Part shown: positions 3,501 through 36,516 of the stretch, piece by piece
Layout: each line of letters begins with the position of its first letter
Position numbering within the stretch: position 1 is the first letter of the stretch
Translations under genes and position numbers: made by a program
DNA from: Promethearchaeota archaeon
Lineage (GTDB): Archaea > Asgardarchaeota > Lokiarchaeia > Sigyniarchaeales > SOKP01
Length of the DNA stretch: 38,553 bases
Assembly (NCBI GenBank): GCA_004524535.1
Contig: SDNY01000022.1
Span: 1-38,553 of the forward strand
Direction of reading: 5' to 3'
The notes under the pieces: model-generated
Told to the model about the DNA's origin: nothing
The model's database searches: none
Seen by the model: only the letters and a program-made list of their open reading frames with translations

Positions 3501-6500
3501 TACATGGTATCGGCTCTGGAATGGTACTGAGTGGTCAATAAATTATACTATTCCGGGTTTAGGCTCAGAAAGAACCGGACAAATCAATCAAGATGCTTGG
3601 AATGACTGTCCGAATGGTACTGTCGTTATCGAATTCTATGCGAATTATACCTTCGGCAATTTGAGGATGAATTCTACAACGGTTAGGAAGGATATTCTGG
3701 GACCTTTAATAACTATTAATGATCCTGCTCCAAATGAATTATTTTTATTTAAAGCTCCAGATGACACGGATTGTGATGTAATTTTTAGTGATGTAAGGGG
3801 TATTGATGCTCGATGGCACATGCTAATAAATGCCACAGACAGCAATCACTATACGAACAATTATACGTGGAATGATGAAGTTAATCAGACTGCTTGGAAT
3901 CAAATGGGCAATGGAACTGTTATCATCCGTATTTTTGCGAATGATTCATCGGGGTACATTGGAATGGCAGAAGTTACTGTAAGAAAAAATATTGTAGACC
4001 CATTTATTTCTATTACTAAACCCGATTCAAATGATATTTTCGGGAATAATACAATGAATTTCACAATTTCAGTGTCGGGAAAAGACCTAGATACCATTTG
4101 GTATATGCTAATAAACGGAACAAACAGTAATGATTATACCAACAATTTAACATATTCTAAGACCGTCGTTGCAGGAGAAATTGAAGATACAATTCAATAC
4201 AATTTATGGAATCAATTTGAAAATGGGACGGTTATTATTCGATTCTTCTTGAACAGAACAAACGGAGTGATGGCGTTTGATGATGTTTTAGTGAGAAAAG
4301 ATATTTTGGGACCTTTAATAACTATTAATGCTCCCACTCCAAATGAATTATTTTCCTCAACCGCACCAGGCTTGGCAGATTGCGATGTAATTTTTAGGGA
4401 TGGGAGTGGTATTGCTGCTCGATGGTATATGCTCATAAATGGAACGGATAATACGGACTATACTAATAATTACACTTGGAATGACGAGGTGGATCAATTC
4501 GTCTGGGATTATATGGATAATGGATTTGTTATCATCCGAATTTTTGCGAATGATTCGTTAGGTTACATTGGAATGGCAGAAGTAACCGTAAGGAAAGATA
4601 TTCATTTACCAAGTAATGGAGCGCCCTATAGTTGGGCGTGGGTGTCAGGGAAAAAAACCACAGATGAACCTGGCGTATATGGCACGAAGGGAGTTCCTGA
4701 TATGGCGAACTATCCGGGAGCTAGATACGGATCTGTTTCTTGGACGGATACGGACGGAAATTTTTGGTTATTCGGAGGTTCTGGTTTGAATGACCTCTGG
4801 AGATTTAACATCACCTCAAAGGAGTGGGCGTGGATGTCAGGGAATAAAACCAAAAATCAATGGGGCGTATATGGCACGAAGGGGGTTCCCGATACGGCGA
4901 ATTATCCGGGAGCTAGAGTATGGTCTGTTTCTTGGACGGATACGGACGGAAATTTTTGGTTATTCGGAGGTTCTGGTTATGACGAATCAGGTGGTTCTGG
5001 GTCTTTGAATGACCTCTGGAGATTTAACATCACCTCAAAGGAGTGGGCATGGATGTCAGGGAATAAAAATATAAATCAAAATGGCGTATATGGCACGAAG
5101 GGAGTTCCTGATATGGTGAATTATCCGGGAGGTAGATGGAGTTCTGTTTCTTGGACGGATACGGACGGAAATTTATGGTTATTCGGAGGTTCTGGTTATC
5201 CCGAATCAGGTGGTGCTGGGCGAATGAATGACCTCTGGAGATTTACCATCACCTCAAAGGAGTGGGCGTGGATGTCAGGGAGTAAAACCTTAGGTGATTA
5301 TGGCGTATATGGCACGAAGGGAGTTCCTGATATGGCGAATTATCCGGGAGTTAGACGGGGATCTGTTTCTTGGACGGATACGGACGGAAATTTATGGTTA
5401 TTCGGAGGGTATGGTCGTGCCGAATCAGGTGGTGGGCAGCTGAATGACCTCTGGAGATTTACCATCACCTCAAAGGAGTGGGCGTGGATGTCAGGGAATA
5501 AAACCGTAAATCAAGGTGGTGTATATGGCACGAAGGGAGTTCCTGATATGGCGAATTATCCGGGAGCTAGACACTCTTCTGTTTCTTGGACGGATACGGA
5601 CGGAAATTTTTGGTTATTCGGAGGTTCTTATAGGAATGACCTCTGGAGATTTACCATCACCTCAAAGGAGTGGGCGTGGATGTCAGGGAATAAAACCGCA
5701 AGTGAATATGGCGTATATGGCACGAAGGGAGTTCCTGATATGGCGAATTATCCGGGAGGTAGATACGGTTCTGTTTCTTGGACGGATACGGACGGAAATT
5801 TATGGTTATTCGGAGGTTGGGGTTATGCCGAATCAGGTTTTGATGGGCAGCTGAATGACCTCTGGAGATTTAAAAATTCTATTGCTCCACATATCACGAT
5901 TATTGAGCCTAGGTATAATAAATTATTTAATGCGACGGCTCCTTCATACAACTTAACCTTTATTGATGCTCATTTAGATGATACATGGTATCGCCTCTGG
6001 AATGGTACTGAGTGGTCAATAAATTATATTATTCCGGGTTTAGGCTCAGAAAGAACCGGACAAATCGATCAAGATGCCTGGAACGACTGTCCAAATGGTA
6101 CTGTCGTTATCGAATTCTATGCGAATGATACCTTCGGCAATTTGAGGATGATTTCTACAACGGTTAGGAAGGATATTCTGGGGCCTTTAATAATTATCAA
6201 TAGTCCTGCTCCAAATGAATTATTTTCATTTAAAGCTCCAGATGACACGGATTGCGATGTAATTTTTAGTGATGTAAGTGGTATTGATGCTAAATGGCAT
6301 ATGCTAATAAATGCAACAAATAGCAATCACTATACGAAAAATTATACGTGGAATGATGAAGTTAATCAGACTGCTTGGGAACAAATGGGGAACGGGACCG
6401 TCATTATTTGGATTTTCGCCAATGATTCTCTTGGTAATATCGGGATGGCAGAAGTGATCGTACGAAAGGATATTGAATTACCAAGTATCGTTATTAATGA

Positions 6501-8220
6501 TCCTACTTTAAATGATATTTTCGGCGTGAATACTTTCAATTTCACAATTACGGTTTCGGGAAAAAATCTCGATACCATTTGGTATATGCTAATAAATGGT
6601 ACAGACAGTAATGATTATACCAATAATTTAACATATTCTAAGACCGTCGCTTCTGGTTCAATTGAAGATATGATTAATTATAACCTCTGGAATCAATTTG
6701 AAAATGGAACGGTTATTATTCGATTCTTCTTGAATAGAACGAACGGATTGATATCATTTGATGATGTTTTAGTGAGAAAAGATATAATAGCTCCTGATAT
6801 CATGATAATTGAGCCAGGATATAATAAATTATTTAATGCGACAGCTCCTTCCTACAATTTAATCTTTATTGAAGCTCATTTAGATGATATATGGTATCGG
6901 CTCTGGAATGGTACTAATTGGTCAATAAATTATACAATCGGGGGTTCAGGTTCTCAGAGATTGGGGCAGATAAACCAAGATGCATGGGATGACTGCCCGA
7001 ATGGTACCGTCATTATTGAATTCTATGCGAATGATACCTTAGGCAATTTGAGGATGAATTCTACAACTATTAGGAAGGATATTCTGGGGCCTTTAATAAC
7101 TATTAATGAACCCACTCCGAATGAATTTTTTTCCTCAACCGCACCAGGCTTGGCAGATTGTAATGTTCTATTTAGTGATGGGAGTGGTATTGATGCTCGT
7201 TGGTATATGCTCATAAATGGAACGGATAACACAGACTATACTAATAATTACACATGGAATGAAGAGGTGGATCAATTTGTCTGGGATTATATGGATAATG
7301 GTACCGTCATCATCCGTATTTTTGCGAATGATTCATTAGGTTACATTGGAATGGCAGAAATTATTGTAAGGAAAGATATTTTAGGACCGATAATAAATAT
7401 CAATGATCCTACTCCGAATGAATTATTTTCCTCAACCGCACCAGGCTTGGCAGATTGTAATGTTCTATTTAGTGATGGGAGTGGTATTGATGCTCGATGG
7501 TATATGCTCATAAATGGCACGGATACCACGGACTATACTAATAATTACACCTGGAATGGCGAGGTGGATCAATTCGTCTGGGACTATATGGATAATGGTA
7601 CCGTCATCATCGTTATTTTTGCGAATGATTCGTTAGGCAACATTGGAAGGGCAGAAATTATTGTAAGGAAAGATATTGAATCGCAACCAGGTGGGCAAAT
7701 TCCCGGTGATGATGATGACGATGATGATGACGATGATGATGACGATGATGATGGAATAATAATAATAATAATAATAATCTGTTTCGGTTCTGTAAGTGGT
7801 ATTGCTGCTACTTCTTTATATTATAAACAACACAGAAATAAAAATTTATATAATAAGCCACACAGAAATAAAAAAGCTAAATCAATTCTTAAAAGAAAAT
7901 TTCAAGAATCTAACAAAATTTTCCCTTCTACTCCATCTTCTAAAGAAATCTTAATGGAACTAACTAATAAAAACTTATTACGCCAAATATTTGATACAAA
8001 AAAGATCAAAAAAATTAATGCTATATTAGATAATATATTAGATAATATCGATTTAACTGCGGTATCTGACGAGTTTCTAAGAAAATTGGATTCTTTAAAG
8101 GTAGACAATGAAGAAAAAAGAGAATTTCTTAAAGAAATGCTGCTTTTTTCTCCCGAAGAAAGAAATGAAATTCTTGATAAGATCTTAAAAAGAGTTAATT
8201 CTTATTCTGAAGGCGAATAA
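589..8220 (+). CDS. Giant cell-surface glycoprotein: signal peptide, 3 x six-bladed kelch-type beta-propellers, about 10 Ig-like repeats, poly-Asp linker, C-terminal TM helix, about 130-aa cytoplasmic tail
   Basis: Basic plus hydrophobic N-terminus. 18 repeats of about 73 aa with kelch signature (WLFGG...NDLWRF...EW.W) in three blocks of six. About 100-aa beta-rich repeats delimited by (V)RKDI. Many N-x-S/T sequons. PG-D15-G-I8-CFGSVSGIAATSLYY followed by a basic stretch. Confidence 0.9.
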   Translation: MIKKLKTKIVVIFVLFLIGIAASIISTTFSADVAAGSKKAGSLSTPYSNGATYGWMWMSGNKTINQNGIYGEKGVPDMANYPGARTRSVSWRDTDGNFWLFGGYGYPQSGGDGHLNDLWRFTLTSKEWAWMSGNKTINQNGVYGEKGVPDMANYPGGRWRFVSWTDTEGDFWLFGGTGYAESGGEGYLNDLWRFNITSKEWAWMSGNKTLNQYGIYGEKGVPDIANYPGARYTSASWTDTEGNLWLFEGFGYAESGGTGRLNDLWRFNITSKEWAWMSGNKTLNQYGIYGEKGVPDIANYPGARSFSISWTDTDGNFWLFGGYGYTESSGDRWLNDLWRFNITSKEWAWMSGNKTIDEYGVYGTKGNPDMANYPGARGNSVVWTDTDGNLWLFGGYGYAESGGLGWLNDLWRFSITSKEWAWMSGNKTINQNGVYGEKGVPDMVNYPGARSASVSWTDTDGNFWLFGGDGYAESGGTGRLNDLWRFKLGCAEESQPDGATYGWTWMVGDKNIDQYGVYGEKGVPDMANYPGTRERSVSWMDTDGNFWLFGGEGYAESGSYDRLNDLWRFNITSKEWVWMSGNKTTVEHGVYGEKGVPDIANYPGARWSSVSWTDTDGNFWLFGGDGYAESGGNGRLNDLWRFNITSKEWTWMSGNKTTGEHGVYGEKGVPDMANYPGARSFFVSWTDTDGNFWLFGALGYDESGGYGHLNDLWRFNITSKEWAWMSGNKTINQNGIYGEKGVPDRVNYPGGRERSVSWTDTDGNFWLFGGIGYNESGDYGRLNDLWRFNITSKEWAWMSGNKTINQNGVYGEKGVPDIENYPGGRVDSASWTDTYGNLWLFGGYGYAELGGNWWLNDLWRFNITSKEWAWMSGNKTTGEHGVYGEKGVPDMANYPGARSASAFWTDTDGSLWLFGGFGYAESGGVGRLNDLWRFKDSIAPYIMIIEPRYNKLFNATAPSYNLTFIDAHLDDTWYRLWNGTEWSINYTIPGLGSERTGQINQDAWNDCPNGTVVIEFYANYTFGNLRMNSTTVRKDILGPLITINDPAPNELFLFKAPDDTDCDVIFSDVRGIDARWHMLINATDSNHYTNNYTWNDEVNQTAWNQMGNGTVIIRIFANDSSGYIGMAEVTVRKNIVDPFISITKPDSNDIFGNNTMNFTISVSGKDLDTIWYMLINGTNSNDYTNNLTYSKTVVAGEIEDTIQYNLWNQFENGTVIIRFFLNRTNGVMAFDDVLVRKDILGPLITINAPTPNELFSSTAPGLADCDVIFRDGSGIAARWYMLINGTDNTDYTNNYTWNDEVDQFVWDYMDNGFVIIRIFANDSLGYIGMAEVTVRKDIHLPSNGAPYSWAWVSGKKTTDEPGVYGTKGVPDMANYPGARYGSVSWTDTDGNFWLFGGSGLNDLWRFNITSKEWAWMSGNKTKNQWGVYGTKGVPDTANYPGARVWSVSWTDTDGNFWLFGGSGYDESGGSGSLNDLWRFNITSKEWAWMSGNKNINQNGVYGTKGVPDMVNYPGGRWSSVSWTDTDGNLWLFGGSGYPESGGAGRMNDLWRFTITSKEWAWMSGSKTLGDYGVYGTKGVPDMANYPGVRRGSVSWTDTDGNLWLFGGYGRAESGGGQLNDLWRFTITSKEWAWMSGNKTVNQGGVYGTKGVPDMANYPGARHSSVSWTDTDGNFWLFGGSYRNDLWRFTITSKEWAWMSGNKTASEYGVYGTKGVPDMANYPGGRYGSVSWTDTDGNLWLFGGWGYAESGFDGQLNDLWRFKNSIAPHITIIEPRYNKLFNATAPSYNLTFIDAHLDDTWYRLWNGTEWSINYIIPGLGSERTGQIDQDAWNDCPNGTVVIEFYANDTFGNLRMISTTVRKDILGPLIIINSPAPNELFSFKAPDDTDCDVIFSDVSGIDAKWHMLINATNSNHYTKNYTWNDEVNQTAWEQMGNGTVIIWIFANDSLGNIGMAEVIVRKDIELPSIVINDPTLNDIFGVNTFNFTITVSGKNLDTIWYMLINGTDSNDYTNNLTYSKTVASGSIEDMINYNLWNQFENGTVIIRFFLNRTNGLISFDDVLVRKDIIAPDIMIIEPGYNKLFNATAPSYNLIFIEAHLDDIWYRLWNGTNWSINYTIGGSGSQRLGQINQDAWDDCPNGTVIIEFYANDTLGNLRMNSTTIRKDILGPLITINEPTPNEFFSSTAPGLADCNVLFSDGSGIDARWYMLINGTDNTDYTNNYTWNEEVDQFVWDYMDNGTVIIRIFANDSLGYIGMAEIIVRKDILGPIININDPTPNELFSSTAPGLADCNVLFSDGSGIDARWYMLINGTDTTDYTNNYTWNGEVDQFVWDYMDNGTVIIVIFANDSLGNIGRAEIIVRKDIESQPGGQIPGDDDDDDDDDDDDDDDGIIIIIIIICFGSVSGIAATSLYYKQHRNKNLYNKPHRNKKAKSILKRKFQESNKIFPSTPSSKEILMELTNKNLLRQIFDTKKIKKINAILDNILDNIDLTAVSDEFLRKLDSLKVDNEEKREFLKEMLLFSPEERNEILDKILKRVNSYSEGE
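736..3390 (+). repeat. Intragenic 219-bp tandem repeats (12 kelch units, two propellers)
   Basis: Near-identical DNA units; gaatgacctctggag recurs at a 219-bp period (e.g. about 933 and 1152). Confidence 0.95.
4615..5872 (+). repeat. Third block of 6 kelch repeat units (two units with shortened loops)
   Basis: Same unit as above but with GTKG instead of GEKG. The GGSGLND and GGSYRND units lack the GY.ESG loop. Confidence 0.92.
7708..7779 (+). repeat. In-frame trinucleotide microsatellites (GAY)15-GGA-(ATA)7ATC encoding poly-Asp and the poly-Ile TM start
   Basis: Read directly from the sequence. Confidence 0.95.
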
Positions 8221-14814: not shown

Positions 14815-15693
14815 TTACAATGAATTAATAGCGTTTCTTAATATTGCTAAAATTTTTTCACGATAATTTGGATTGATAGCAATCATTCCATGAACTTTTA
14901 TGGGGGGAATTTTATCAGATAAATTTGCAAGAATTTTTTCACAAAATTCAGGAGTAAGCCTATTAGGTAAATCTTGTTTGTTTGCTATTCCTATAATTAA
15001 ATAACCTTTGTAATATTTTTCCAACACTTCTTTAATAATTTCTTTAGAAGAATTCAAATTTTCATAAGTAGAATCTAATACTAAAAGTGCGATTTGTGTA
15101 TTGTCTAATAAGCTCCCCCATAAAGTCCGGAACTGTGCTTGTCCCGCGAAATCCCAAAAAGTCACTGGCAAAAAACTGAGCTCTTTATCCTCATAATTCG
15201 TTATATTTGCAGTAATCGTTGGAACATACTCAAGATTAATATCTTTTCCGCATATAAGATGAAGTAAACTAGTTTTTCCTACTCCACCGAATCCAATTAT
15301 ACTAACTTTTATTGCGCCTAAAACGATAGTATCTAATTCCTTTTCAAAATCGTAAAAAATAGCGCGGTTTCCATCCCATTTACCTTCCTCAAAGAGAGTG
15401 CCATAATTTTTAATAAATTGAGCTCTAATTTTATTAATCTTTGAATAAACCTGAGCATCGTCATCTTCTAAATCCGCACATACAACTATTATAAAGGAAT
15501 TAACTACTGTATAATGATATTTAAAATCTTCTGTAGAGGTACTTTTAATGTCAGAACGACTAATTTCTTTCATGAATCCTGAAAAAGCACTTAAAAACCC
15601 TGCCAATAAATCTCTATCAATTTCGGAATCTCCATAATTCCTAAATAGCAATGATTTGCCATCCTTGGTCATGATATTAATATATTGGATCAT
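14815..15693 (-). CDS. Longin-like domain fused to an Arf/Rab-like small GTPase
   Basis: N-terminal about 125 aa has a longin-like pattern (GKSLLFRNYG...DLLAGFLSAFSGF); G1 GFGGVGKT, G2 PTI, G3 WDFAGQ, G4 NKQD. Confidence 0.85.
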   Translation of the reverse strand: MIQYINIMTKDGKSLLFRNYGDSEIDRDLLAGFLSAFSGFMKEISRSDIKSTSTEDFKYHYTVVNSFIIVVCADLEDDDAQVYSKINKIRAQFIKNYGTLFEEGKWDGNRAIFYDFEKELDTIVLGAIKVSIIGFGGVGKTSLLHLICGKDINLEYVPTITANITNYEDKELSFLPVTFWDFAGQAQFRTLWGSLLDNTQIALLVLDSTYENLNSSKEIIKEVLEKYYKGYLIIGIANKQDLPNRLTPEFCEKILANLSDKIPPIKVHGMIAINPNYREKILAILRNAINSL

Positions 15694-16498: not shown

Positions 16499-17068
16499 TC
16501 AATGTTTTGTTTTTGAAAGAAATACTTTCTTTGCAATCGTTTCAAAGATTTTTTTTACATTAATACCTGTTTTTGCGGAAGTCTCAAAATACTCAGCATT
16601 TAATTCTTCACTTAAATGATCTGCGTGAGGTTGGACTATTTTTCTATCATCTTTCAAATCAACCTTATTACCGATTAAAACCCGAGGGATTGAACTAAGC
16701 CCATGTTTTATGCATGTATTCCACCAATTTTTTACATTGGAAAAACTAGAACTGCGGGTAATGTCAAAAACTAGAATTATACCATCAGCTCCATTGAAAT
16801 AGGGTTTATGTAGCATGTAGAACTGTGGTTGTCCCGCGATATCCCACATCATTAAGGTAGCAACTATATCCTCGTTGTTAATAGTGGTTTCTAACCGCTC
16901 TTTTACAATATTTACACCTACCGTTGGAAGGTACTGCTCTGGGAAGAGATTCGTTGAGTATTTGCTTAACAGACTCGTTTTACCAACAGAGGGGTCACCA
17001 ATTACGATTATCTTATAAATTGTCTCAGTTTGACCTTGAAACACAATTTTATCGTTATTTTCACTCAT
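16499..17068 (-). CDS. Rab-like small GTPase
   Basis: GDPSVGKT, PTVG, WDIAGQ, GNKVD and ETSAK motifs; no C-terminal prenylation Cys. Confidence 0.95.
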   Translation of the reverse strand: MSENNDKIVFQGQTETIYKIIVIGDPSVGKTSLLSKYSTNLFPEQYLPTVGVNIVKERLETTINNEDIVATLMMWDIAGQPQFYMLHKPYFNGADGIILVFDITRSSSFSNVKNWWNTCIKHGLSSIPRVLIGNKVDLKDDRKIVQPHADHLSEELNAEYFETSAKTGINVKKIFETIAKKVFLSKTKH

Positions 17069-17186: not shown

Positions 17187-17744
17187 TTAAATTAATTTCT
17201 GCAAAGCAATTTTCTTTTCAATATGAAATTTTGATGATTTATTCTTTTCTCGTGAAATAAAAAAAATGGAGTTTAGAATAAAGGTTAATTCTTCCCACTG
17301 ATTTTGTAGCTTTTCTAATATAGATCTTAATTCTTTTTTTCCCCTAATCTGCCCGAGGCTTAAATGGGGAGTAAAACCATTTTTATGTTTATTTGCATCA
17401 TTGCAATCAGGTACGATTTTTAACAATTTTTCTTGAAGTTCTATTATTAAATTAGCGGGTTCTGGATTTAACCATATTGTGTATCTTTGATTTCCGTGAT
17501 GAAAGTAATTAAATATTTTGAGCGATATCTCAAATGAATTAATTTGTTGACAAGTTTTATGAAAATCTTTTTCAAGGTTATTGAACTCATTAATAGGTCT
17601 AAAAGGATAAAAAAGATTGACATGAGGCATCCATCGATTAATTTTTCGGTCATGGATCTTCCGAATTTCTTGGATCGGTGTCCATACATTTTCAGGAGGG
17701 ATTATTACAACTGCAGATGTATAAACTTTGCTCATAAAACTCAT
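17187..17744 (-). CDS. 2H phosphoesterase / 2'-5' RNA ligase family protein
   Basis: Two His motifs, PHVNL (atypical, N in place of T/S) and FTPHLSLG. Confidence 0.85.
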   Translation of the reverse strand: MSFMSKVYTSAVVIIPPENVWTPIQEIRKIHDRKINRWMPHVNLFYPFRPINEFNNLEKDFHKTCQQINSFEISLKIFNYFHHGNQRYTIWLNPEPANLIIELQEKLLKIVPDCNDANKHKNGFTPHLSLGQIRGKKELRSILEKLQNQWEELTFILNSIFFISREKNKSSKFHIEKKIALQKLI

Positions 17745-26257: not shown

Positions 26258-27049
26258 TTGAAAATGAATGACCAAAAAATAATTAAAAAATTACGGGAAC
26301 GCTCGTTTCGTGGTGTAATTTTTGATTTTGATGGAACACTGTTGGATGTTATGGAACCGCTTAAAAGATCAATTGAAGAAGTTTACACTGAAAAGAACAT
26401 CCAAGCAGACATGGAACTTACAATACAAGAAATTGGAACTACATTGGAATCAATCCAGGGATATCCTATACCTAAAATACTACTCCAATCATATGAAATT
26501 TTCAAGGCCATCTCTAGTTTGAGCCATTTAAGATATCTCAAAAAATTGCGTATTGCAATGAAAATCTTTGGAAAATACCAGGAATATTCAAAAGAAGCAT
26601 CGATATTTCCTGGCTCAAAAGAACTAATTTCTTTTCTTAAAAAAGATTGCGTTCTTTTTATTGTATCTCACAATCAAACAAGAAGTGTTATAGAATCAAT
26701 AGAAAAGGAGGGGCTTGAAAAATATTTTGAAGATTTTTATGGGGCCGATAAACTTCCCGCTCTAAAACCACACCCAGACGCTTTTCTCCCTGTTTTAGAG
26801 AAATATAAAAAGATTAAAGGATCTGAGTGGTTATTATTTGGAGATATGCCCACTGATATTGAAGCTGGTAAAGAAGCTGGATTGTGTACTGTAGGAATAG
26901 CAAGTGGGATTAGTAAAAAAGAAGTCTTAGCTGAGTTCCGGCCAGATTTATTGGTCAATTCAATAACAGAATTATTAGAGCTCCTTGGTATTAAAAATGG
27001 TCATAGTTCAAATTCTAATGTTCAAACATCATTAAAAATTAAATCTTAG
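26258..27049 (+). CDS. HAD-superfamily phosphatase
   Basis: DFDGTLLD, IVSH, KPHPD and GDMPTDIEAGKEAG. Confidence 0.93.
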   Translation: MKMNDQKIIKKLRERSFRGVIFDFDGTLLDVMEPLKRSIEEVYTEKNIQADMELTIQEIGTTLESIQGYPIPKILLQSYEIFKAISSLSHLRYLKKLRIAMKIFGKYQEYSKEASIFPGSKELISFLKKDCVLFIVSHNQTRSVIESIEKEGLEKYFEDFYGADKLPALKPHPDAFLPVLEKYKKIKGSEWLLFGDMPTDIEAGKEAGLCTVGIASGISKKEVLAEFRPDLLVNSITELLELLGIKNGHSSNSNVQTSLKIKS

Positions 27050-27062
27050 GAGGTTAAAATAA

Positions 27063-28715
27063 ATGGAAATTCCTAAAACTGATTTAAAAGAAGCACAAAA
27101 ACAAATAAAAAAAGAAAAAGTAAATTTGGAAATTGAAGAGAAAGATCAAGATTTATATGAGAAACCTCATGAAAAATTGCTATATAAAATATTAAAACAT
27201 AACCCTATCGATTATATAAATAATATATTACGTTCTATCTGCGATAAGTTCACAATACAAGATGAAGTTGACGAATTCCAATGGTGGCTTGCTTATGCTT
27301 TTTGGTGTAAATCATCGATGCGTCTCTTCTGGAACTATCGCACAGAAGGTCCCGTGGCTCCCGAGCATGGTGGTGCGGTAATAGTATCAAATCATAATTC
27401 TCATTTAGATCCATTCTTCGTTGGTGGATCAGTCAATAGACCAATTAGATGGATGTCTAAAAAAGAAAATTTTAAAACGCCTATAGTAACTACTCTTTTC
27501 AAAAATTTAGGTGCTTTCGAGCTTGATCGTGATAATCCAGATGAGGGGATGGATAAGGCGAGGGAATTACTTAAAGATGGAGAGTATGTAGGTATATTCC
27601 CTGAAGGAACTCGAGCTGAGAACGGAGAGATGGGAGAATTTCGTACTGGAGCAGTTAGACTTGCAATTGAAACGGGTGTACCAATATTACCATGCGTAGT
27701 TTTAGGATCTCGCGATGCACTTCCAAAAGGCAAGTTAGTGATGAGACCAACTAAAGTAACTTGTCGGCGCGGAGAACCAATTTATTATGAGGATTATTAT
27801 GGAAAGGAAATATCTTATCCCGAAATCAAAAGACTAACTGACGAATTACGAGAGGTTATAATCGACTTATATGAAGGCAATAATGAGGAATCAAAAGAAT
27901 TATCGATTGGATATCCTAAAGATATGGAAGATAAACCCAAATCAAGTGGATTTAAAGGAATCCTTAAAAATATACAACATCATATTTTATGGAGTGTCGA
28001 TGATTTTTGGTATGCACTTCTTAAAAGTCTAGATATGATCGGAGCACGAGACGCATTTACAAAACCAATATATGGCTTGACAGGCGTGTTATTAACTGCT
28101 TATACTGATTTAATTAATCCAATTAAAGTCATAGATTTTGATAAACATATCCCTGAAGAAGGTGGAGCGCTTATTGCATGTGGTCATAGCTCAGAGTGGG
28201 ATGTATTAATGCTTCCTTTAGCCATATGGCAAAATGGAAGTCGACAATTATATCAAATGGCAAAAGAATCTTTATTCAAAATACCAATCGTAAACGCTTG
28301 GGTAAGAACACATCACGCATTTCCATTAAGAAGAGGGGACCATGATATAAGCTCATTCAATACTGGCAAAGATCGATTAGAAGAGGGTCAGCTTGTTGTT
28401 GTTTATCCTGAGGGAACAACCAATCTAGGAGGGGGAGAACTATTAGAAGGTCATACAGGAGCAATTCGCTTGGCGATCGAAGCAAAAGTACCTATTATCC
28501 CCGTTGGAGTAACTGGTACCGAAAATATATATCCAAAACATGCAAAAATGCTCAATTTTGGAAAGGGATGTATATTTAAGGCTGGAAAGCCTTTTATGGA
28601 GCATTCACAATATTTCGATAAACCAATGCCAAAATATGACGAGCTTAGAAGATTAACTAATATCTTGATGGAGAGAATTAAGGATCTAATGTTTTATAAT
28701 AACCCTAATGTTTAA
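27063..28715 (+). CDS. Tandem two-domain PlsC-like glycerolipid acyltransferase
   Basis: Domain 1 NHNSHLD...FPEGTR; domain 2 GHSSEWD...YPEGTT; both keep HX4D. Confidence 0.93.
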   Translation: MEIPKTDLKEAQKQIKKEKVNLEIEEKDQDLYEKPHEKLLYKILKHNPIDYINNILRSICDKFTIQDEVDEFQWWLAYAFWCKSSMRLFWNYRTEGPVAPEHGGAVIVSNHNSHLDPFFVGGSVNRPIRWMSKKENFKTPIVTTLFKNLGAFELDRDNPDEGMDKARELLKDGEYVGIFPEGTRAENGEMGEFRTGAVRLAIETGVPILPCVVLGSRDALPKGKLVMRPTKVTCRRGEPIYYEDYYGKEISYPEIKRLTDELREVIIDLYEGNNEESKELSIGYPKDMEDKPKSSGFKGILKNIQHHILWSVDDFWYALLKSLDMIGARDAFTKPIYGLTGVLLTAYTDLINPIKVIDFDKHIPEEGGALIACGHSSEWDVLMLPLAIWQNGSRQLYQMAKESLFKIPIVNAWVRTHHAFPLRRGDHDISSFNTGKDRLEEGQLVVVYPEGTTNLGGGELLEGHTGAIRLAIEAKVPIIPVGVTGTENIYPKHAKMLNFGKGCIFKAGKPFMEHSQYFDKPMPKYDELRRLTNILMERIKDLMFYNNPNV

Positions 28716-28717
28716 AA

Positions 28718-29743
28718 ATGAGAGTAGGTATCCCCCGAGCACTTCACTATTACAAATTCTTCCCTTTTTGGAAAAAATTATTTGATGAATTGAATGTCGA
28801 AATAATCCTTAGTTCACCAACTAATAAAAAAATAGTAGAAGTTGGAGTAATGCATGGATTTGGAGAATTATGTCTCCCTGTGAAAGTTTATTACGGCCAC
28901 GCTCTCCAATTAATAAATGAACATCCTGAGTTAGACTTTCTATTTGTTCCGAGATATGTTTCTGAGTTAAAGGAATCCTTCTGGTGTCCAAAATGGATAT
29001 CTCTTCCGGATGTTATTAAAATTCTGCCAAACTGCCCAAAATTATTAAATTTTGAAGTAAATGTGAAAGAATTTCCGATTGCCACAGCAGTAATAGAACT
29101 TGGTAAGCAATTAGGGAAAAGTCAGTCTGCTTCATTAGGGGCATATAAAAAAGCCCAAAAATATTATGATGAGTATTTAGAATTTTTAAGGAAAGGAGTT
29201 TCTGTCATTCATGCGTTAAGGCTAGTGTTAAGAGACGCCCCTTTCAAAGTGCCAAAAAGAAAAAGTAAGGGTTCTATTAAATTCCTATTATTAGGGCATG
29301 CTTATAATCTCTTTGATACTTATATAAATTTAGATTTCGCAAAAAAATTGAATGATCAAGATGTTGAGGTTATCACGATTGAAAATATGCCCGAGCACAT
29401 TTTTAAAGACCCCGTAATTGTCAATAAGAAGCTTCTAAATTATTGGCGTCATGAAGAAGAAATAATGCAGGCTATTAGATATTTTTTAACTAAAGGGCGT
29501 AATGAAATCGATGGAGTAATCTTTCTCATAAGCTTCGCTTGTGGTCCGGATAGCCTTATATCAGAATTAATAATGCACGACATGAAAGCTGTAGGAATTC
29601 CTTATCTCGCAATAATAATCGATGAGCATTCTAGTGATTCTGGACTTTTGACACGCGTAGAATCCTTTACCGATATGATTAAAAGGAAAATACAAAAACA
29701 AGAATTAAAAATAAAACAGGAACCAAAATTAAAAATAACTTAA
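28718..29743 (+). CDS. DUF2229 / acyl-CoA dehydratase-activase-associated subunit (PlsA/PlsR-like module)
   Basis: MRVGIPRAL, CLPVKVYYGH, CPKW, LLGHAYN, SFACGPDS and IDEHS...GLLTRVESF. Confidence 0.85.
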   Translation: MRVGIPRALHYYKFFPFWKKLFDELNVEIILSSPTNKKIVEVGVMHGFGELCLPVKVYYGHALQLINEHPELDFLFVPRYVSELKESFWCPKWISLPDVIKILPNCPKLLNFEVNVKEFPIATAVIELGKQLGKSQSASLGAYKKAQKYYDEYLEFLRKGVSVIHALRLVLRDAPFKVPKRKSKGSIKFLLLGHAYNLFDTYINLDFAKKLNDQDVEVITIENMPEHIFKDPVIVNKKLLNYWRHEEEIMQAIRYFLTKGRNEIDGVIFLISFACGPDSLISELIMHDMKAVGIPYLAIIIDEHSSDSGLLTRVESFTDMIKRKIQKQELKIKQEPKLKIT

Positions 29744-29947
29744 GATAATATCAGAAAAATCAATTTCTATAAGCAAAATTTTTTAAATCTTTTATTTTTA
29801 ACATTTCTTTAATTTTCTCATTGGAAGGCATATTAATATCTAAGAAATAGGCTTCGTAAATATTTTAAAATCTGATATGTCTAAATCATGTAAAAGAAGC
29901 GTCCAAAGATAGGAGTTATCTTTGGCATTAAAAAAAAAACTAAGAGC

Positions 29948-30127
29948 TTATTTTTTCGTGAGATCTATTATCTCATTCTTTAGATTGGAATAAAAATCCG
30001 CTAATTTACCATCATAATCAACATTTTCTAAATCTTTCAATAATACTTCTACAGCTTCTTTTGATTTTAAAACGAGGTCGTCATTAGTAGAAACGATATA
30101 GAAATCTTTTGGTTCTAGAACGAAAAG
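29948..30127 (-). pseudogene. 3' remnant of an unidentified gene
   Basis: 59 sense codons with protein-like composition (FVLEPKDFYIVSTNDDLVL...IIDLTKK*) and no start codon. Confidence 0.45.
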
Positions 30128-30282
30128 TCAGAGTAAATATTTAAATTGAAATATTTCCTTTCTCTCTATTATATTAATGAGTTTAACTTTATGTTTGAAG
30201 TAAATTCAGATCAAAAATATTGTATAAAGATTTAATCTACTTCTTATAAAAAAATAAATATCCAAATTACTTTTAATTATAT

Positions 30283-30525
30283 ATGACACATCGAACGATA
30301 GATTTACCTGAACAAATTTATAAAGAATTGATGAAATTAAAACAAAAAAATGAGACCGTTTCCGAGGTAATTTCTCGTTTGATTAAAAAGGAAAAACCTA
30401 TAAAATCAATTAAAAAATTCGCAGGTATTTTTCAAAATTTTTCCGAAGAATGGGAATCTATTGAAAGAGCTCTTTATAAAGATCGTTTAAGGCAAACGAA
30501 CGAAAGAACACTTAATTTTGAATAA
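30283..30525 (+). CDS. vapB: VapB-family antitoxin (DUF217-like)
   Basis: RTIDLPEQIYKELMKLKQKNETVSEVISRLI...KFAG; overlaps the downstream PIN gene. Confidence 0.85.
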   Translation: MTHRTIDLPEQIYKELMKLKQKNETVSEVISRLIKKEKPIKSIKKFAGIFQNFSEEWESIERALYKDRLRQTNERTLNFE

Positions 30526-30946
30526 ATCTATTTTTGATGAGATGCCAATATTAGATAGTGATATTATTATCGCTTATTTCCGAAATGTTCCAAAAGCAGT
30601 TGAGATTATTGATAAGTTTGTTAAGGAACAGAAAATTCTGAAAACTACTATTTTCAATGTGGCAGAATTATATAAAGGAGCATATCTCTCCTCGAAAGTA
30701 AAAGAGAATATTAAAGAAATAGAAGAATTTTTAGAAAATGTAACGATTATTGATTTTACTATAAATGATGCCATAAAATTTGCCAAAATTTCAGCAGAAT
30801 TAAGACAAAAAGGTGAAATGATTGGTGATTTTGATGAATTAATAGCAAGTGTAGCTATTAATAATAATGAAACTATTTTCACGAGAAATATCAATCATTA
30901 TGAAAGAATTCCTCAATTATCATTTAAGAATTGGGAAAAAACATAA
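30518..30946 (+). CDS. vapC: VapC PIN-domain ribonuclease toxin
   Basis: LDSDIII, AELYKG, IGDFDELIASVA and TRNINHY. Confidence 0.92.
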   Translation: MNKSIFDEMPILDSDIIIAYFRNVPKAVEIIDKFVKEQKILKTTIFNVAELYKGAYLSSKVKENIKEIEEFLENVTIIDFTINDAIKFAKISAELRQKGEMIGDFDELIASVAINNNETIFTRNINHYERIPQLSFKNWEKT

Positions 30947-31018
30947 ATTAAACAATATAAAAATTAAAAATAACCTCAATCTAACTTCGTTTGTTATACT
31001 ATTCTTCTCTATCTATCT

Positions 31019-31432
31019 TTATTTTCTCTTTTTCCAAGATCTTAGTTGTAGCTTGAATATATCTTCAAATTTTTTATCTGTAGAGTATATAATATTCGTG
31101 TCATGCTTTTTACAGGTCATTGCAATTATTTCATCGTGCAATTCGTGGCTCTCCATATTCTCTAGCATTAATTTAAGGATCTCTAAGTTAAAATCATCTA
31201 TAATGATATTTTCTGATTTTTCCCATCGATCAAGAGCTTCTCTAATCACATTTATTTTCCCTACTTTTCTCATTTTCCAAAATAACTCCGCTATTGCGAT
31301 AGTAGGTATAATTACTGTTATTTTTCCATCTATCACTTTTTTCTTCAGTTCTTGAAGCATTGAAGGGATTTTCTGATAGTCATAATGAAAATAAAATAGG
31401 ACTTGAGCGTCGATTACTACTATCTCTGTCAT
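31019..31432 (-). CDS. vapC: PIN-domain toxin
   Basis: VIDAQV, IAEL, LHDEIIA and STDKKF. Confidence 0.85.
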   Translation of the reverse strand: MTEIVVIDAQVLFYFHYDYQKIPSMLQELKKKVIDGKITVIIPTIAIAELFWKMRKVGKINVIREALDRWEKSENIIIDDFNLEILKLMLENMESHELHDEIIAMTCKKHDTNIIYSTDKKFEDIFKLQLRSWKKRK

Positions 31433-31457
31433 TTTAAATCAACTGGAAATTATATAA

Positions 31458-31733
31458 TCAATTTTCATTAGGAAATAATGATTTTTTCGCTTCATCTAAC
31501 TCCTCCTCACTAAACGGAGATATTCCTTCAAATAAGTTATCTTCAATTTCGAGAGGATGAATCTTTTTTTTGATTAAAATCGTTTTATCATCTTTCAATT
31601 CCATTTCGACTAAATTCTTATCGTCAATAGCTAATTTGTCCCTCCAATCTTTTGGTATGACAATTCTTCCGTTTGATGAAACTTTTTGAGTTATTTTCTC
31701 AGTCATTTTTACCATTATTTTGTTGATTGTCAT
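31458..31733 (-). CDS. AbrB/MazE/SpoVT-family antitoxin
   Basis: KVSSNGRIVIPKDWRDKLAI; the real start may be a downstream ATG (31715 or 31706). Confidence 0.9.
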   Translation of the reverse strand: MTINKIMVKMTEKITQKVSSNGRIVIPKDWRDKLAIDDKNLVEMELKDDKTILIKKKIHPLEIEDNLFEGISPFSEEELDEAKKSLFPNEN

Positions 31734-31753
31734 TATACTATAACAAATGACAA
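31727..31753. promoter_or_regulatory. Palindrome TTGTCATT-N11-AATGACAA, probable TA autorepression operator
   Basis: Perfect 8-bp inverted repeat at the 5' end of the AbrB gene. Confidence 0.5.
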
Positions 31754-32003
31754 CAAATAAATCTTTTCAAATTTAGAATATTTTAAACAAAATATCTTGA
31801 TGAAATTGAATAATTAGAAGATAGTATCTACAATAGTTGCTTAGATCTAAATTAAAAGCATTATGTAATTTATTTTTCTCATACTATTGATAATATTTAT
31901 CTATTGGAGATATTTTTATATAAAACTGATTTATTTAAACAAAATTTTGTTTAAGTAAATTTAGAATTTAAATTTAAATAAGTTTAAAAAGATTTACGAT
32001 AAG

Positions 32004-33194
32004 ATGCTAGCTTCATTTCCAAATATGGGTCTGAGTTGGGTGGCTTTCAAGACATTAGTTGAATGTATGGGGGTAGATGTAGTTTTGCCTGACCCTACTA
32101 ATCGAGAAGCAATAAAAATAGGTGTAAAATATAGTCCCGAATTTGTTTGCTTTCCTTTTAAAGCAACACTCGGAGATCTCAAAAACGCACTTGACAAGGG
32201 AGCAGATACCCTAATAATGGCCATAGATTGCGGACCCTGCCGTTTCGGATTTTATGCAAGCGTTCAGGAGCGGCTTTTAAAAGAAATGGGTTATAAAAAC
32301 TTTAGATTAATTCCTCTTGACCAGGCTGATTTACTATCGTTCCGGTGGCTTAAACTCATATTCAAGATTGGTCCTTCCAATAGATTGGCATTATATTCAA
32401 AAGCTCTAAAAGCTGCCAAGTTTTTCCTGAAAAAAGCCAAATATCTTGAAGATATTCAAACTGCAGAGGGAATTTTTCGGGCTTACGAGCGAAATCAAGG
32501 AGATACTACTAGAGTAGTTAATAAATTAGTAAAACAACTTGACGAAACTAATACAAGTAAAGGATTTCGTGAATTCCGCAACGTTATAAAAGATACATTT
32601 AACAATATGGATATTGATAAGAATCGCAATCCCCTAAGAGTAGGGATTTCAGGAGAGATTCATATCAGTTTAGAACCTTATGTTAATCTTGATATTAGAC
32701 GGAAATTAGGGGAAATGGGGGTTTTAGTTACTCAATCTCTAAGTCTTTACGATTGGATTGTTCATAAATTCCATCTCAATTATCACAGGAAGTGGCTTGA
32801 GCATCTTGCACGTCCTCATATACCTATGGATATCGGGGGAGAAGCTGTATGGGTGATAGGAGAATATATTGAAAAAGCTAAAGCTGGATTTGATGGATTT
32901 GTGCACCAATATCCTTTCACCTGCATGCCTGAGGTTACTGCCCGAACAATTATTACAAATCATTTACAAAAGAAATACGATTTACCTGTAATTTATTTCT
33001 CATTTGACGAACAGACGAGCTCTACAGGGGGATTTCGCACAAGGCTGGAAGCGTTTGTAGACTTAATGCACGCTAGACGAGATAAAAAAATTGAGGATCA
33101 ACAAATTTCAATAGAAGCATATAAAAAAATCGCTTATGATCATTACGGAAACAATTTTTATAATGAATGTGTTCAATTTGTTCAAACAAAATAG
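32004..33194 (+). CDS. 2-hydroxyacyl-CoA dehydratase-like / CoA-activase-associated subunit (PlsR-like module)
   Basis: SFPNMG, SPEFVCFPFKATLG, GPCRFGFY, GISGEI, PFTCMPE and FDEQT...RTRLEAF. Confidence 0.85.
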   Translation: MLASFPNMGLSWVAFKTLVECMGVDVVLPDPTNREAIKIGVKYSPEFVCFPFKATLGDLKNALDKGADTLIMAIDCGPCRFGFYASVQERLLKEMGYKNFRLIPLDQADLLSFRWLKLIFKIGPSNRLALYSKALKAAKFFLKKAKYLEDIQTAEGIFRAYERNQGDTTRVVNKLVKQLDETNTSKGFREFRNVIKDTFNNMDIDKNRNPLRVGISGEIHISLEPYVNLDIRRKLGEMGVLVTQSLSLYDWIVHKFHLNYHRKWLEHLARPHIPMDIGGEAVWVIGEYIEKAKAGFDGFVHQYPFTCMPEVTARTIITNHLQKKYDLPVIYFSFDEQTSSTGGFRTRLEAFVDLMHARRDKKIEDQQISIEAYKKIAYDHYGNNFYNECVQFVQTK

Positions 33195-33201
33195 AGGTTA
33201 A

Positions 33202-34262
33202 ATGAAAATGGTACAAGTTTCAGATAAGGTCGCTCCTAGCGATAATAAGAAAGACGCTTTCCTTGGTATAGATGCTTTCTAAATTATAGAAGCAATACAA
33301 ATGTTGGAAGCGTCAGTTTAAAATTTGTTCTAATAGACACAGATGGGAATGTACTTACAAGCGTATTCTTAAGAAATAAGGGGTCACCTATCGAATCTGT
33401 TAAAGAAGGAATGGCACAATTAAGAAAGCAAGTAGAGGCAAGTGAAGAATTGCAAGGGTTTGAAATACGAGCTTGTGGAACGACGGGTTCCGCTAGATAT
33501 TTAACCAAAGCCGTTGTTGGCGGAGATCTTGCTAAGACGGAGATTATAGCTCACGCTGTAGGTGCCCAATCTGAATATCCTGATGTGAGAACAATACTAG
33601 AGATTGGAGGACAAGACTCGAAGATGATCCTCCTCCGAGATGGGATCATAGTTGATTTTGCGATGAATTCTGTCTGTGCAGCTGGGACGGGCTCTTTCCT
33701 TGATCATCAAGCTTCAAGGCTTGAAATCCCTATTGAAGAGTTTGGAAGTTATGCTGTAAAATCGACAAATCCAGTTTCAATAGCCGGGAGATGTACCGTA
33801 TTCGCTGAATCTGATATGATTCATAAGCAAAATGCGGGATATTCTCGTGAAGACATTATTGCTGGTTTATGCGATTCATTGGTTCGAAATTATTTGAATA
33901 ATTTATCCAAGGGAAAGGATTTAGACTCCCCAATTGTTTTTCAAGGCGGTGTTTCTTTTAACGCAGGGATTGTACAAGCTTTTGAGAGACACCTTGGTGT
34001 TAAAGTGGTCGTCCCTAAGCATAACGTTTTAATGGGGGCAATAGGCATGGCAATTCTAGTGAGAGATCATTACCTTAACCATGAAACTGAAACTGTATTT
34101 AGGGGATTTGAAGTTGCAGAAATAGATTTTGTCACGTCAGCCTTTAACTGCGGTGATTGTCCCAATAATTGCGAAATTGTTCAAGTTAAAATGCCAGATG
34201 AGGAGGATAAGGTGATAGCTCGATGGGGAAGTCGCTGTGGAAAATGGAACGAACTCATATAA
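33202..34262 (+). CDS. Acyl-CoA dehydratase activase (HgdC/BadFG-type ASKHA ATPase, [4Fe-4S]); join(33202..33271,33301..34262), 343 aa
   Basis: Spliced N-terminus ...AFLGIDVGSVSLK; TTGSAR, EIGGQDSK, MNSVCAAGTGSFLD, RCTVFAESD, FQGGV and C-terminal CGDCPNNC...RC. GAGGT lies upstream of ATG 33202/33208. Confidence 0.9.
33272..33300 (+). other. Putative 29-nt bulge-helix-bulge (BHB) intron in a protein-coding gene
   Basis: GUAU/AUAC 4-bp central helix, 3-nt bulges AGA and AAA, intron stem UGCUU(U)CUA/UAGAAGCA, exon stem GACGCUU(U)CC/GGAAGCGUC. Cuts after bulge nucleotide 2 restore GAT GTT GGA. Confidence 0.85.
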
Positions 34263-34355
34263 AAAAGAAAGAAAGAGATTTAAGAGTCTATAATTTTTAA
34301 CAAATTGCTGTAAGTCCTTAACTCTGGCTTTAGTCTTGGATTCCATTAGATTCAT

Positions 34356-34694
34356 TCACTCTCCTTCTTGGATTGATTTTATTAGACATTTCCCGATATA
34401 GCCGAGAAAATGCGTCACATTCCCGTTATGGTAGTCGATTATTACAAGCTTTTCTTTAATCTTCTTCTGGTTGGCAAGACTTAAGCTTTCAAACATTTCG
34501 GTTATTACTTTAATGGGCATAAGGTGGTGCATGTTACTGTCGTCAAAAAACTCTATGATTTTATCATCCAAATTCTTTTCTTCGACGAATCGGTTTAACC
34601 AACTAATGATTTCTGAGGATTCCTCAAACTCGGTTTCCCAGCTATCATCAATAATAAGAATAATAATATCTTTTCTCCAAAATAATTGATTGAT
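34356..34694 (-). CDS. Hypothetical protein, possibly MGE/virus-derived (start uncertain)
   Basis: Frame is open to 34694. WLNRFVEEK...KIKEKLVIIDYHNGNVTHFL recalls small phage-type hypothetical proteins (from memory only). Confidence 0.5.
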   Translation of the reverse strand: MNQLFWRKDIIILIIDDSWETEFEESSEIISWLNRFVEEKNLDDKIIEFFDDSNMHHLMPIKVITEMFESLSLANQKKIKEKLVIIDYHNGNVTHFLGYIGKCLIKSIQEGE

Positions 34695-35214
34695 TTATTT
34701 TAACCTGTACAAAAGTGGTTTTTGCTCCTTTCCAATTTAATTAGAAAAGAAGAAATAGAAAAAATAGATTTGATTTTAAATTTAAAAAAATTAGAGAAAA
34801 TGGATTTGATTCTATGCGTGTAGGCGTATTTCAAGTTATCTCTCTTTATTTTTTTATTTTTTTCTCTCTTTCTTTTTTATTCTTTTTCTATCATGAGCAA
34901 AAAAAATTAAGATGGGTATATTCTCTAAAAAAAGATCTTCACTCTATGCACAATCATCCCGACCATACACAATATACAATACACTACACCACGCCAAAAG
35001 CCTTTGAAAGATGTAGTCAATAGCTATTGAAAATAGCTATCATTGGATCTCTCACGATTAACGGTTTAAAAGGCTTCACTATGGAGATATTAATTACATA
35101 ATGAGGGCACATACTATATATTTGGCGTAAAAATGAAGGGTCTTGGTGAAGTCTTCAACTTATCGACTAATCATTATATCTAATCAGAATTTCCCTTAAA
35201 GAAAAATCGGTAAA

Positions 35215-35247
35215 ACTCTGAATTTATCTTTAGGGGAAAATCAGAGT
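35215..35247. repeat. 33-bp palindromic site ACTCTGA-N19-TCAGAGT, copy 1
   Basis: Same arms and spacing as 36732-36764. Confidence 0.7.
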
Positions 35248-35319
35248 AAATTAAGATAAGTGATAATAAAATAAAAAAAATATAAAAAAAAAAAAAGTGT
35301 TTTCAATTATTTTTCAAGT

Positions 35320-36516
35320 TTAAAAATCCTCGTCTTCATCAAAATCATCATCATCAAATTCAGCCTCGCTAGGTCTAGGGGCGAGAAAAACCTTCATTTC
35401 AGTATTATCTAACTCCTTAAATTTCATATATGTATTTAAGGGGTGATCGGTCTTCACGCTAAAATCTACTGTATCTCTTTTAGATAATATCTCGGACATT
35501 TTGCCTATCTGCTTTAAAAAGGTAAAAGAATACGCGCCACAACATTCTTTTTTCTGTAGCATATTCTCCAATATGGTTTTACTGCTCAACGATAACTCCC
35601 CGTCTTTGAGCTCTTCTTTAATAGGACTTAAATCAAAATAAAGGTTCTTAATGTTGTTTTTCTTCCAAATAATGTCCCCTTCTCCCAGTTGTCCTTCCTC
35701 CGAGAAGCTAATTTCATTTGGTCTGACCTTAATCGTTATGATTTCGCTGTATAAATCCATATTCCTTAAGACATACTCTAACTTGGAAGGGGAGATCGAA
35801 AACCCGGACGGGTAAACTATTCCTGAAACCATTTCTATGGGTACTTCTTCCATATCAAGATCTAAGGGTTGTAGGGTTCTGTTGATGGTGGAATTGTATT
35901 CTCTGGATTTAATGGTTATATAGAGGCGATCTTCTGCAAAAGTTAAGGTCGTCTGTGAATTATCGGTGCTATTACATTTGATTAGCTTTTGAAGATCATC
36001 AAGATTGATGCCTAATTTGCCTTCTCTTAAAAATTGATAAGATTTGCCTCTTAGTTCTATGTGAAATAAACAGATTCTTGAAGGATCCATAACAGCTATT
36101 TTGATATAGTCTTTTGTGGCCATGAATTCTATCTCGTCTATAATTGAGCTAAAAATTCTAAAAAAATTGTGCAAGGGATAAGAAGGAAAAGAGATTCTGC
36201 AAAATGCATTCTTATTTATCAGCAACTCCAATCTCCCCTGTAAATCTCTTAAAAACTTTTTCTTTCTCTGGATGATTTCCTTTGGTTTGATAAATGAATA
36301 TTCGGTAAAAATGGCGTCTAATTTAGAATTAATCTCGCTTGAGAATCTTTTCTGGAAGGTGCTGGTCTTCTCTACGAAGATAGAGGAGGATGATTTTTTA
36401 TTATAGGAAAAAAGTAGAGCGTCGAGCTTTTCGCTAAGCTCTTTGTCCTGCTCTCCTTTTTCCGCTAAGTCTGCCCAATAACTATCCTTTTCTGCTTCAA
36501 CCATTTTTCTGATCAT
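35320..36516 (-). CDS. pcn: Divergent PCNA (sliding clamp) with about 105-aa N-terminal extension and an internal insertion
   Basis: SSIIDE, MDPSRICL, GINLDDL.K, YSF.FL, KTDHPL and FLAPR, plus an acidic tail. Confidence 0.85.
   Translation of the reverse strand: MIRKMVEAEKDSYWADLAEKGEQDKELSEKLDALLFSYNKKSSSSIFVEKTSTFQKRFSSEINSKLDAIFTEYSFIKPKEIIQRKKKFLRDLQGRLELLINKNAFCRISFPSYPLHNFFRIFSSIIDEIEFMATKDYIKIAVMDPSRICLFHIELRGKSYQFLREGKLGINLDDLQKLIKCNSTDNSQTTLTFAEDRLYITIKSREYNSTINRTLQPLDLDMEEVPIEMVSGIVYPSGFSISPSKLEYVLRNMDLYSEIITIKVRPNEISFSEEGQLGEGDIIWKKNNIKNLYFDLSPIKEELKDGELSLSSKTILENMLQKKECCGAYSFTFLKQIGKMSEILSKRDTVDFSVKTDHPLNTYMKFKELDNTEMKVFLAPRPSEAEFDDDDFDEDEDF

Follow-up and report, generated by a model that had tools for sequence, protein, structure and literature searches.

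A 29-nt hairpin insert interrupts an archaeal activase gene

A 29-nt insert in an activase gene of an Asgard archaeon of the class Lokiarchaeia is very probably a tRNA-type bulge–helix–bulge (BHB) intron, drawn from a population of hairpin introns, probably spliced and spreading, that interrupt many genes. The gene lies in the window, by which we mean the whole 38,553-nt stretch of DNA analysed (contig SDNY01000022.1). Its first exon (33202..33271, + strand) comprises 23 codons and the first base of an Asp codon, and N-terminal alignment with intronless orthologs places the exon end within the first strand of the ATP-binding motif, which we take to contact the ATP phosphates. The candidate intron (33272..33300, +) brings a TAA stop (33280–33282) into the exon-1 frame together with a frameshift, with the coordinates and letters that an earlier note on this DNA had given. 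Exon 2 (33301..34262, +) has 319 codons and zero stops, and encodes a BcrAD_BadFG/acyl-CoA dehydratase activase with a C-terminal Cys cluster (Pfam PF01869, E 6e-45; TIGR00241 also matched). With exon 2 alone the TIGR00241 match starts at model position 7, as against position 3 for an intact ortholog. The activase also matched its solved relatives (PDB 1hux, 4eht and 9gai; E 1e-35 to 1e-38), each of which opens with the same N-terminal motif. When the insert was excised in silico, a stop-free ORF of 343 aa from ATG 33202 (341 aa from ATG 33208) resulted, bearing out the prediction that removal restores a full-length protein. Four excision registers (33272–33275) yield identical DNA, and the BHB cut rule selects the first of them.

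The RNA around the insert (33250–33318) was predicted to fold with −19.6 kcal/mol (z −3.28), and none of 200 shuffled sequences folded as well. The exon strand of the central helix (33266–69) and the 5′ bulge (33270–72) occupy 33266..33272 (+), with a predicted cut after 33271; the intron strand of the helix (33295–98) and the 3′ bulge (33299–33301) occupy 33295..33301 (+), with a predicted cut after 33300. Between them, an intron stem (33273..33294, +) pairs 33273–81 with 33287–94, leaving one bulged base and a 5-nt loop of the A-N-N-U-(C/A) type (33282–86). The whole motif is closed by a predicted 9-bp exon–exon stem pairing 33253–61 with 33306–14 (33253..33314, +), whose synonymous positions are conserved only in intron-bearing alleles. 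The central helix had pair probabilities of 0.73–0.76 across five flank lengths, and the two exon-side G·U pairs 0.01–0.02; forcing the first of these cost about 3 kcal/mol (−16.8 versus −19.6). Across the seven insert-bearing alleles described below, one exon-side G·U is invariant and is followed by an internal loop and a 9–10-bp stem, while the intron-side helix h′ has 8 pairs (94.6% paired, 2 compensatory). A strict canonical hBHBh′ motif, with a stable helix h beside the bulge, was therefore not found, and the modelled structure is a relaxed HBh′/bulge–helix–loop motif closed by the exon stem. The earlier description of a canonical BHB was thus firm for the central helix and the intron stem but overstated in the word 'canonical'. 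The predicted bulge cuts coincide with one of the homology-defined registers, in agreement with the cut sites first proposed.

Genes around the activase

The activase stands behind a cluster of genes (26258..33194, +) whose order is conserved in three same-genus genomes and in which domain matches identified a HAD hydrolase (26258–27049, +), a two-domain acyltransferase (27063–28715, +) and two DUF2229/HGD-D genes (28718–29743 and 32004–33194, +). Between the DUF2229 genes, about 2.3 kb (29701–32000) is missing from three same-genus genomes; this segment holds two convergent small gene pairs, toxin–antitoxin-like, with PIN-domain ORFs (30518–30946, +; 31019–31432, −), and no convincing terminal repeats were seen at its ends. 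In the intron-bearing activase alleles L044 (6467–7213) and L072 (448–987), an unrelated gene replaces DUF2229 directly upstream; by eye, these upstream genes encode a membrane protein and a GNAT-like protein. Downstream, similarity to relatives extends no further than 34247, shortly ahead of the activase stop codon, and the last residues therefore differ. There follow about 1 kb (34247–35320) with a possible ORF of 71–112 codons (34356–34694, −), and a 398-aa protein (35320–36516, −) in which a 118-aa N-terminal extension precedes a weak PCNA match (E 4e-7). Ras/Arf GTPase genes also occur in the window: one of them (14815–15693, −), whose product carries a weak longin-like match (E 7e-4) ahead of its small-GTPase part, adjoins a Ras-family GTPase gene (16499–17068). 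Other genes encode a 2543-aa protein with many Kelch repeats (589–8220, +) and a member of the 2′-5′ RNA ligase (2H) superfamily (17187–17744, −).

The insert is precisely present or absent among orthologs

A search of 60 related genomes returned 30 activase loci, 29 of them readable, among which 27 lack exactly 29 nt while the studied genome (G000) and a genome of another genus (G014) carry the insert. Metagenome loci supplied further intron-bearing alleles in 5 of the 29 examined (one of the 30 was left out); the other 24 had no activase match and were attributed to chance. In the alignment of homologs that had been proposed, 34 orthologous loci could thus be compared: 27 have a clean gap of 29 nt, and 7 have an insert at the identical site. 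Both of the closest same-genus genomes, G008 (96% amino acid identity) and G002 (94%), are intronless. A pattern search of 160 genomes of the class, which detects only alleles having the specified flanking codons, gave five matches, three of them real alleles (G000, G014 and G158). The matches in G050 and G119 were chance hits with no activase match, as were 33 of 35 genome loci matching the pattern.

The seven alleles keep the predicted structure. Of all structure cells, 95.7% are paired, compared with 29–52% for slid partners, and the central helix is 100% paired; the alleles differ chiefly at the bulged base and in the loop. Covariation, which had been suggested as a further check, was present as two compensatory pairs (changes on both sides), but 28 of 500 shuffles reached that count in these seven related sequences, and we regard the covariation as modest.

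Similar inserts interrupt many genes of the same genome

The genome was scanned on both strands for BHB geometry joining two reading frames, with mirror geometry as a control. Energy and ORF rescue alone gave 16 true against 15 mirror candidates, and another scan gave 81 against 69 (both at ≤ −12 kcal/mol). With a codon filter the counts were 4 and 0, and with a hairpin filter 19 and 0 (≤ −14). Candidates were then placed without reference to the motif, by the removal that best matched an intronless homolog. The genome-wide scan that had been called for in this way yielded 19 homolog-verified inserts in 17 genes, the full 4-bp helix being present in 18 of the 19; since these sites were first detected by a motif scan needing a 4-bp helix and limited lengths, the number is a lower bound.

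The host genes, named from Pfam/NCBIfam matches, include, besides the activase, rpl11 (uL11; contig C188), a YchF-like GTPase (at a position that is presumably Walker A), a B12-binding mutase subunit, an oxidoreductase gamma subunit (two inserts), an ABC ATPase (at what we take to be Walker B), iorB, a cold-shock protein gene (csp; 53 nt), leuS (LeuRS; C185), gyrB (C104), argG, elp3, a Ras-family GTPase, an Fe-S/CCG protein, cobA and a UDP-sugar dehydrogenase. The gene for RNA polymerase A′ (rpoA′; locus L286, G000:C17:1-3628) is interrupted twice in its first 80 codons; the first of these inserts has three of the four helix pairs. A tblastn search of this 99%-complete genome found no second copy of rpoA′, leuS, gyrB, argG, elp3, rpl11 or ychF. 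Weaker support came from inserts in MoxR, ACS beta and SCP2 genes, which join contiguous Pfam positions across the insert, and from an insert seen in an lsrF-like gene. Candidates on C142, C75, C120, C191, C61, C47, C97 and C162, which either found no backing in family contiguity or fell outside the homolog comparison, were left uncounted. A promoter scan was uninformative (12 found versus 9.7 expected).

Relatives carry inserts at several of the same sites. Counting the studied genome, inserts were found in 10 of 29 rpl11 loci (four sites), 8 of 30 ychF loci (two sites), 6 of 20 ABC ATPase loci, 9 of 19 iorB loci, 6 of 17 csp loci (two sites), 6 of 30 loci at the second rpoA′ site, 2 of 16 loci at the first site of the gamma-subunit gene and 2 of 4 argG loci; at the remaining sites, the activase site aside, the studied genome alone had an insert. 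At the second rpoA′ site, the five relatives have introns of differing sequence, 30–50 nt long. In rpl11, three further intron sites lie within about 20 codons in other genera (L123, L129, L132, L137, L140 and L145), forming a hotspot. In the sister family f2, the rpl11 and ychF sites were free of inserts in every locus compared (13 and 11 loci, respectively).

The 65 distinct inserts share a design: they are 28–53 nt long (mode 30) with 27% GC. Among the 43 inserts from relatives, which were not chosen by motif, though many share a site with an insert of the studied genome and are thus not fully independent, 38 have the 4-bp helix and 35 the intron stem as well, compared with 10% and 2.3% in slid registers and three under mirror geometry. 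Two csp inserts were counted here as misses, having two of four pairs in the homology placement (four in another placement). A 5-nt loop occurs in 43 of 64 folded introns, with A at position 1 in 36, U at position 4 in 40 and C or A at position 5 in all 43. Within the studied genome the A-N-N-U-(C/A) loop appears in 9 of 13 introns taken one per gene (one of the 13 from the unverified C162 candidate), against 9.7% of 10,912 genomic hairpins. A rough census of the tRNA introns of this genome, with unreliable assignments, likewise gave 28–31-nt hairpins, some with similar loops. The shared loop may reflect common origin or recognition by a factor.

Splicing by EndA and RtcB is the preferred explanation

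The genome encodes two EndA-family genes (on contigs C100 and C84) and one RtcB. For one EndA subunit, the alignment to crenarchaeal alpha subunits takes in both the specific loop and the active-site stretch (3p1z; E 8e-37), in which a Tyr-His-Lys triad presumably supplies the catalytic residues. Asgard archaea are reported to have (alpha-beta)2 EndA with a specific loop, and enzymes of this kind remove relaxed motifs, according to the available text of Kaneta et al. (PMC5829648). Judging from these sequences, the host would encode a ligase as well as an EndA capable of cleaving relaxed motifs.

We propose that in the pre-mRNA the last bases of exon 1 would form, with the 3′ end of the intron, a 4-bp helix that has a 3-nt bulge on either side and that the intron hairpin and the 9-bp exon stem are predicted to hold in place. 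The two-subunit EndA would then cut each bulge behind its second base, and RtcB would ligate the exons, so that the ATP-binding motif would regain its Asp and the activase its full 343 aa. Comparison with the other inserts shows the activase intron to be a member of a population of hairpin introns of about 30 nt that interrupt conserved motifs of many genes in this Lokiarchaeia-type family; such introns would be gained and lost often, and would be tolerated because they are spliced out. That EndA and RtcB remove the activase intron by splicing is, in our judgement, highly likely. The exact ortholog gaps, the conserved structure and the enzyme genes all support the central proposal of the earlier note, an EndA/RtcB-type intron inside an Asgard mRNA.

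The earlier note had further proposed that this splicing, by analogy with IRE1/HAC1, possibly gates a membrane-lipid pathway. Such a regulated switch would add a function to the preferred explanation without replacing it, and the idea has its attractions, as unspliced RNA cannot yield an intact ATP-binding motif, the activase gene ends the acyltransferase/DUF2229 cluster, and the available text of PMC2738675 suggests regulation as a role of the cbf5 intron. However, the intron is not a conserved target, being missing from 27 of 34 orthologs including the closest relatives, real alleles were recovered from 3 of 160 genomes of the class by pattern search, and inserts of this design occur in 16 or more unrelated genes of the genome, housekeeping genes among them. 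So patchy an occurrence speaks for near-neutral introns that spread rather than for a switch devoted to the lipid pathway, and we consider control of the lipid-modifying operon improbable.

If the hairpin were instead never removed, it would inactivate the activase, and a paralog would do the job. An intact paralog with 54% identity does exist on contig C98, so that the activase gene by itself need not be expressed, and the only RNA run among the 24 listed has depth 0 over 33115–33519, which weighs neither for nor against splicing. (An intron in the C98 paralog itself was considered and rejected, the stop reported for the paralog group lying outside the aligned part of this genome's copy.) Yet exon 2 of the interrupted gene is intact and 96% identical to one intronless ortholog, the insert persists with its structure in alleles that are 73–98% identical, and inserts of the same type break single-copy rpoA′, leuS and gyrB. 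A dead insertion is thus very unlikely.

Ribosomes are known to hop over short coding gaps in phage T4 gene 60 and in the yeast mitochondrial byps. Translational bypassing or frameshifting over the hairpin would fit inserts that are short and contain an early stop codon in 22 of 24 in-frame cases (from rough frame calls), and the terminal repeat at the activase site is 3 nt long. The take-off codon GAT, however, does not match AAT, the codon before exon 2, a rough assignment of frames gave matched codons in no more than 5 of 59 inserts, and the 4-bp exon–intron helix at the bulge register would be left unexplained. We give bypassing only a slight chance.

Equally slight is the chance of a DNA-level element, either a transposon footprint or an excisable hairpin that leaves the chromosome in expressing cells. 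The patchy distribution and the shared loop could reflect a mobiliser that binds DNA hairpins, but no joint skipping the 29 nt was seen in three DNA runs (whose contigs drop rare variants). Terminal repeats of the inserts range from 0 to 4 nt with variable length, and no fixed target-site duplication was found. Nor does the genome contain a second copy of the activase intron, the next best match having seven mismatches.

An assembly error, which had been named as grounds for abandoning the intron, can be dismissed as a vanishingly small chance even for a metagenome-derived genome whose best-matching run may be its source, since a Logan contig of depth 51.8 (possibly from the source sample) spans the insert with 0 differences and 0 gaps, a contig from a separate study covers 33241–33392 gap-free, and six further loci carry the insert with natural variation.

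How the activase intron moved

Exon sequences next to the intron are unusually alike among the alleles that carry it. Synonymous codon identity in intron-bearing pairs was 0.92 over codons −7 to −1 and 0.75 over codons 0 to +5, compared with 0.33–0.39 near the site in pairs involving intronless alleles, and it was 0.41–0.45 for all pair classes beyond codon 56 (pairs in this comparison are non-independent). When the intron was grafted into 34 exon contexts, the six most stable folds were those of intron-bearing contexts. The conservation of the flanks fits selection on the exon stem, co-transfer of the flanks, or both.

In exon-2 trees (FastTree, 32 sequences, rooted on L030), five intron-bearing alleles sit in three places, with the intronless L002 and L003 nested among them (support 0.98–1.0); placement of the G014 allele is weak (support 0.31 for protein and 0.82 for DNA). 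The introns of G000 and G014 are identical at 25 of 29 positions, while distant synonymous sites of the two genes match at about 0.42. One N-terminus is common to four intron-bearing alleles and occurs in none of the 27 intronless ones. Exon 2 of L081 is 98% identical to that of intronless L002, and its best 5′ matches (73–76%) are three other intron-bearing alleles, all others reaching at most 61%. This apparent mosaic hints at lateral spread, although the 1.2-kb contig could be a chimeric assembly. On balance, we lean towards movement of the activase intron between lineages together with a short flanking stretch of exon; old inheritance followed by many precise losses is less likely, though a serious possibility.

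At 29 nt and without an ORF, the activase intron does not look like a mobile intron of the homing-endonuclease kind. Inspection by eye of the window flank and of the seven allele loci, some of which are short, showed no nuclease-like ORF next to the activase. Other inserts do have such neighbours: the lsrF insert is followed, after about 250 nt, by a LAGLIDADG-type ORF, and an ORF matching PF14528 was seen some 2 kb away from the leuS insert. Homing might also proceed in trans. LAGLIDADG-type matches were further obtained for long ORFs at C185:11873-13948, C26:41660-42883 and C48:10757-12499.

Discussion

The inserts described here suggest that an Asgard lineage probably splices many of its mRNAs. 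We think it rather likely that one Lokiarchaeia-type family harbours related, still-spreading hairpin introns of about 30 nt in tens of mRNAs per genome, with EndA and RtcB acting as a general mRNA-splicing system. If so, with some twenty introns in one genome, some of them in essential single-copy genes, enzyme-mediated mRNA splicing would be routine in this lineage. Introns would have expanded in protein genes, with hosts that include RNA polymerase, LeuRS, gyrase and a Rab-like GTPase, without a spliceosome and in the closest relatives of eukaryotes, which bears on the origin of intron tolerance before the spliceosome. The arrival of BHB introns would also become testable, as the reading frames and synonymous sites of coding hosts trace gains, losses and co-converted tracts. 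Standard annotation reads the host genes as truncated or broken, with effects on gene content and metabolic models. In the literature searched, which took in few subscription papers, no description of a BHB intron within an Asgard coding sequence came up, though a published one may exist.

In IRE1/HAC1–XBP1 splicing, endonuclease cuts and a tRNA ligase remove a short, frame-shifting intron. That system differs from the present one in its nuclease, its motif and its single conserved, regulated target. The activase itself belongs to a family of activators of 2-hydroxyacyl-CoA dehydratases and benzoyl-CoA reductases. Ger homologs, among the PlsA/Ger-like lipid reductases, are reported from Lokiarchaeota in the available text of PMC13159169; in contrast to those reductases, the activase and DUF2229 parts here are separate genes, known from domain matches.

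According to the available text of Yokobori et al. (2009; PMC2738675), the cbf5 intron of Desulfurococcales and Sulfolobales is the only confirmed archaeal coding-sequence intron, others being predicted. As described there, the cbf5 intron resembles the activase intron closely: both are short (16–44 bp in cbf5) BHB-like introns in coding sequence that split a catalytic codon, encode no nuclease, are present or precisely absent among relatives and need EndA (presumably so for the activase). However, cbf5 represents one gene with one old gain, a few losses and demonstrated splicing, whereas the Asgard set comprises 19 or more sites, spread over 17 genes of a single genome, with several alternative sites per gene across the family and a patchy distribution within a genus, its splicing being deduced from sequence. 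According to Schwarz et al. (2020; PMC7714728), the 5′ UTR of HVO_1309 in Haloferax volcanii contains a BHB intron that serves as an EndA substrate both in vivo and in vitro; the available text of that paper names cbf5 as the sole other BHB mRNA intron and notes a bias of circRNA-seq against short circles. Both HVO_1309 and the activase would thus be mRNA substrates of EndA, but the former is a single case in an untranslated region that leaves the frame unaffected. Closest in lineage are the non-canonical tRNA introns of Asgard archaea (10.64898/2026.10.13.758758; PMC11291895), which, as far as the available texts go, have the motif, the enzyme and repeated gains in common with the introns described here. 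In the available text of the preprint 10.64898/2026.10.13.758758, 'mRNA' has no matches and 'protein-coding' one unrelated match. Those texts treat tRNA genes only, whereas here the hosts are mRNAs, whose reading frame depends on splicing.
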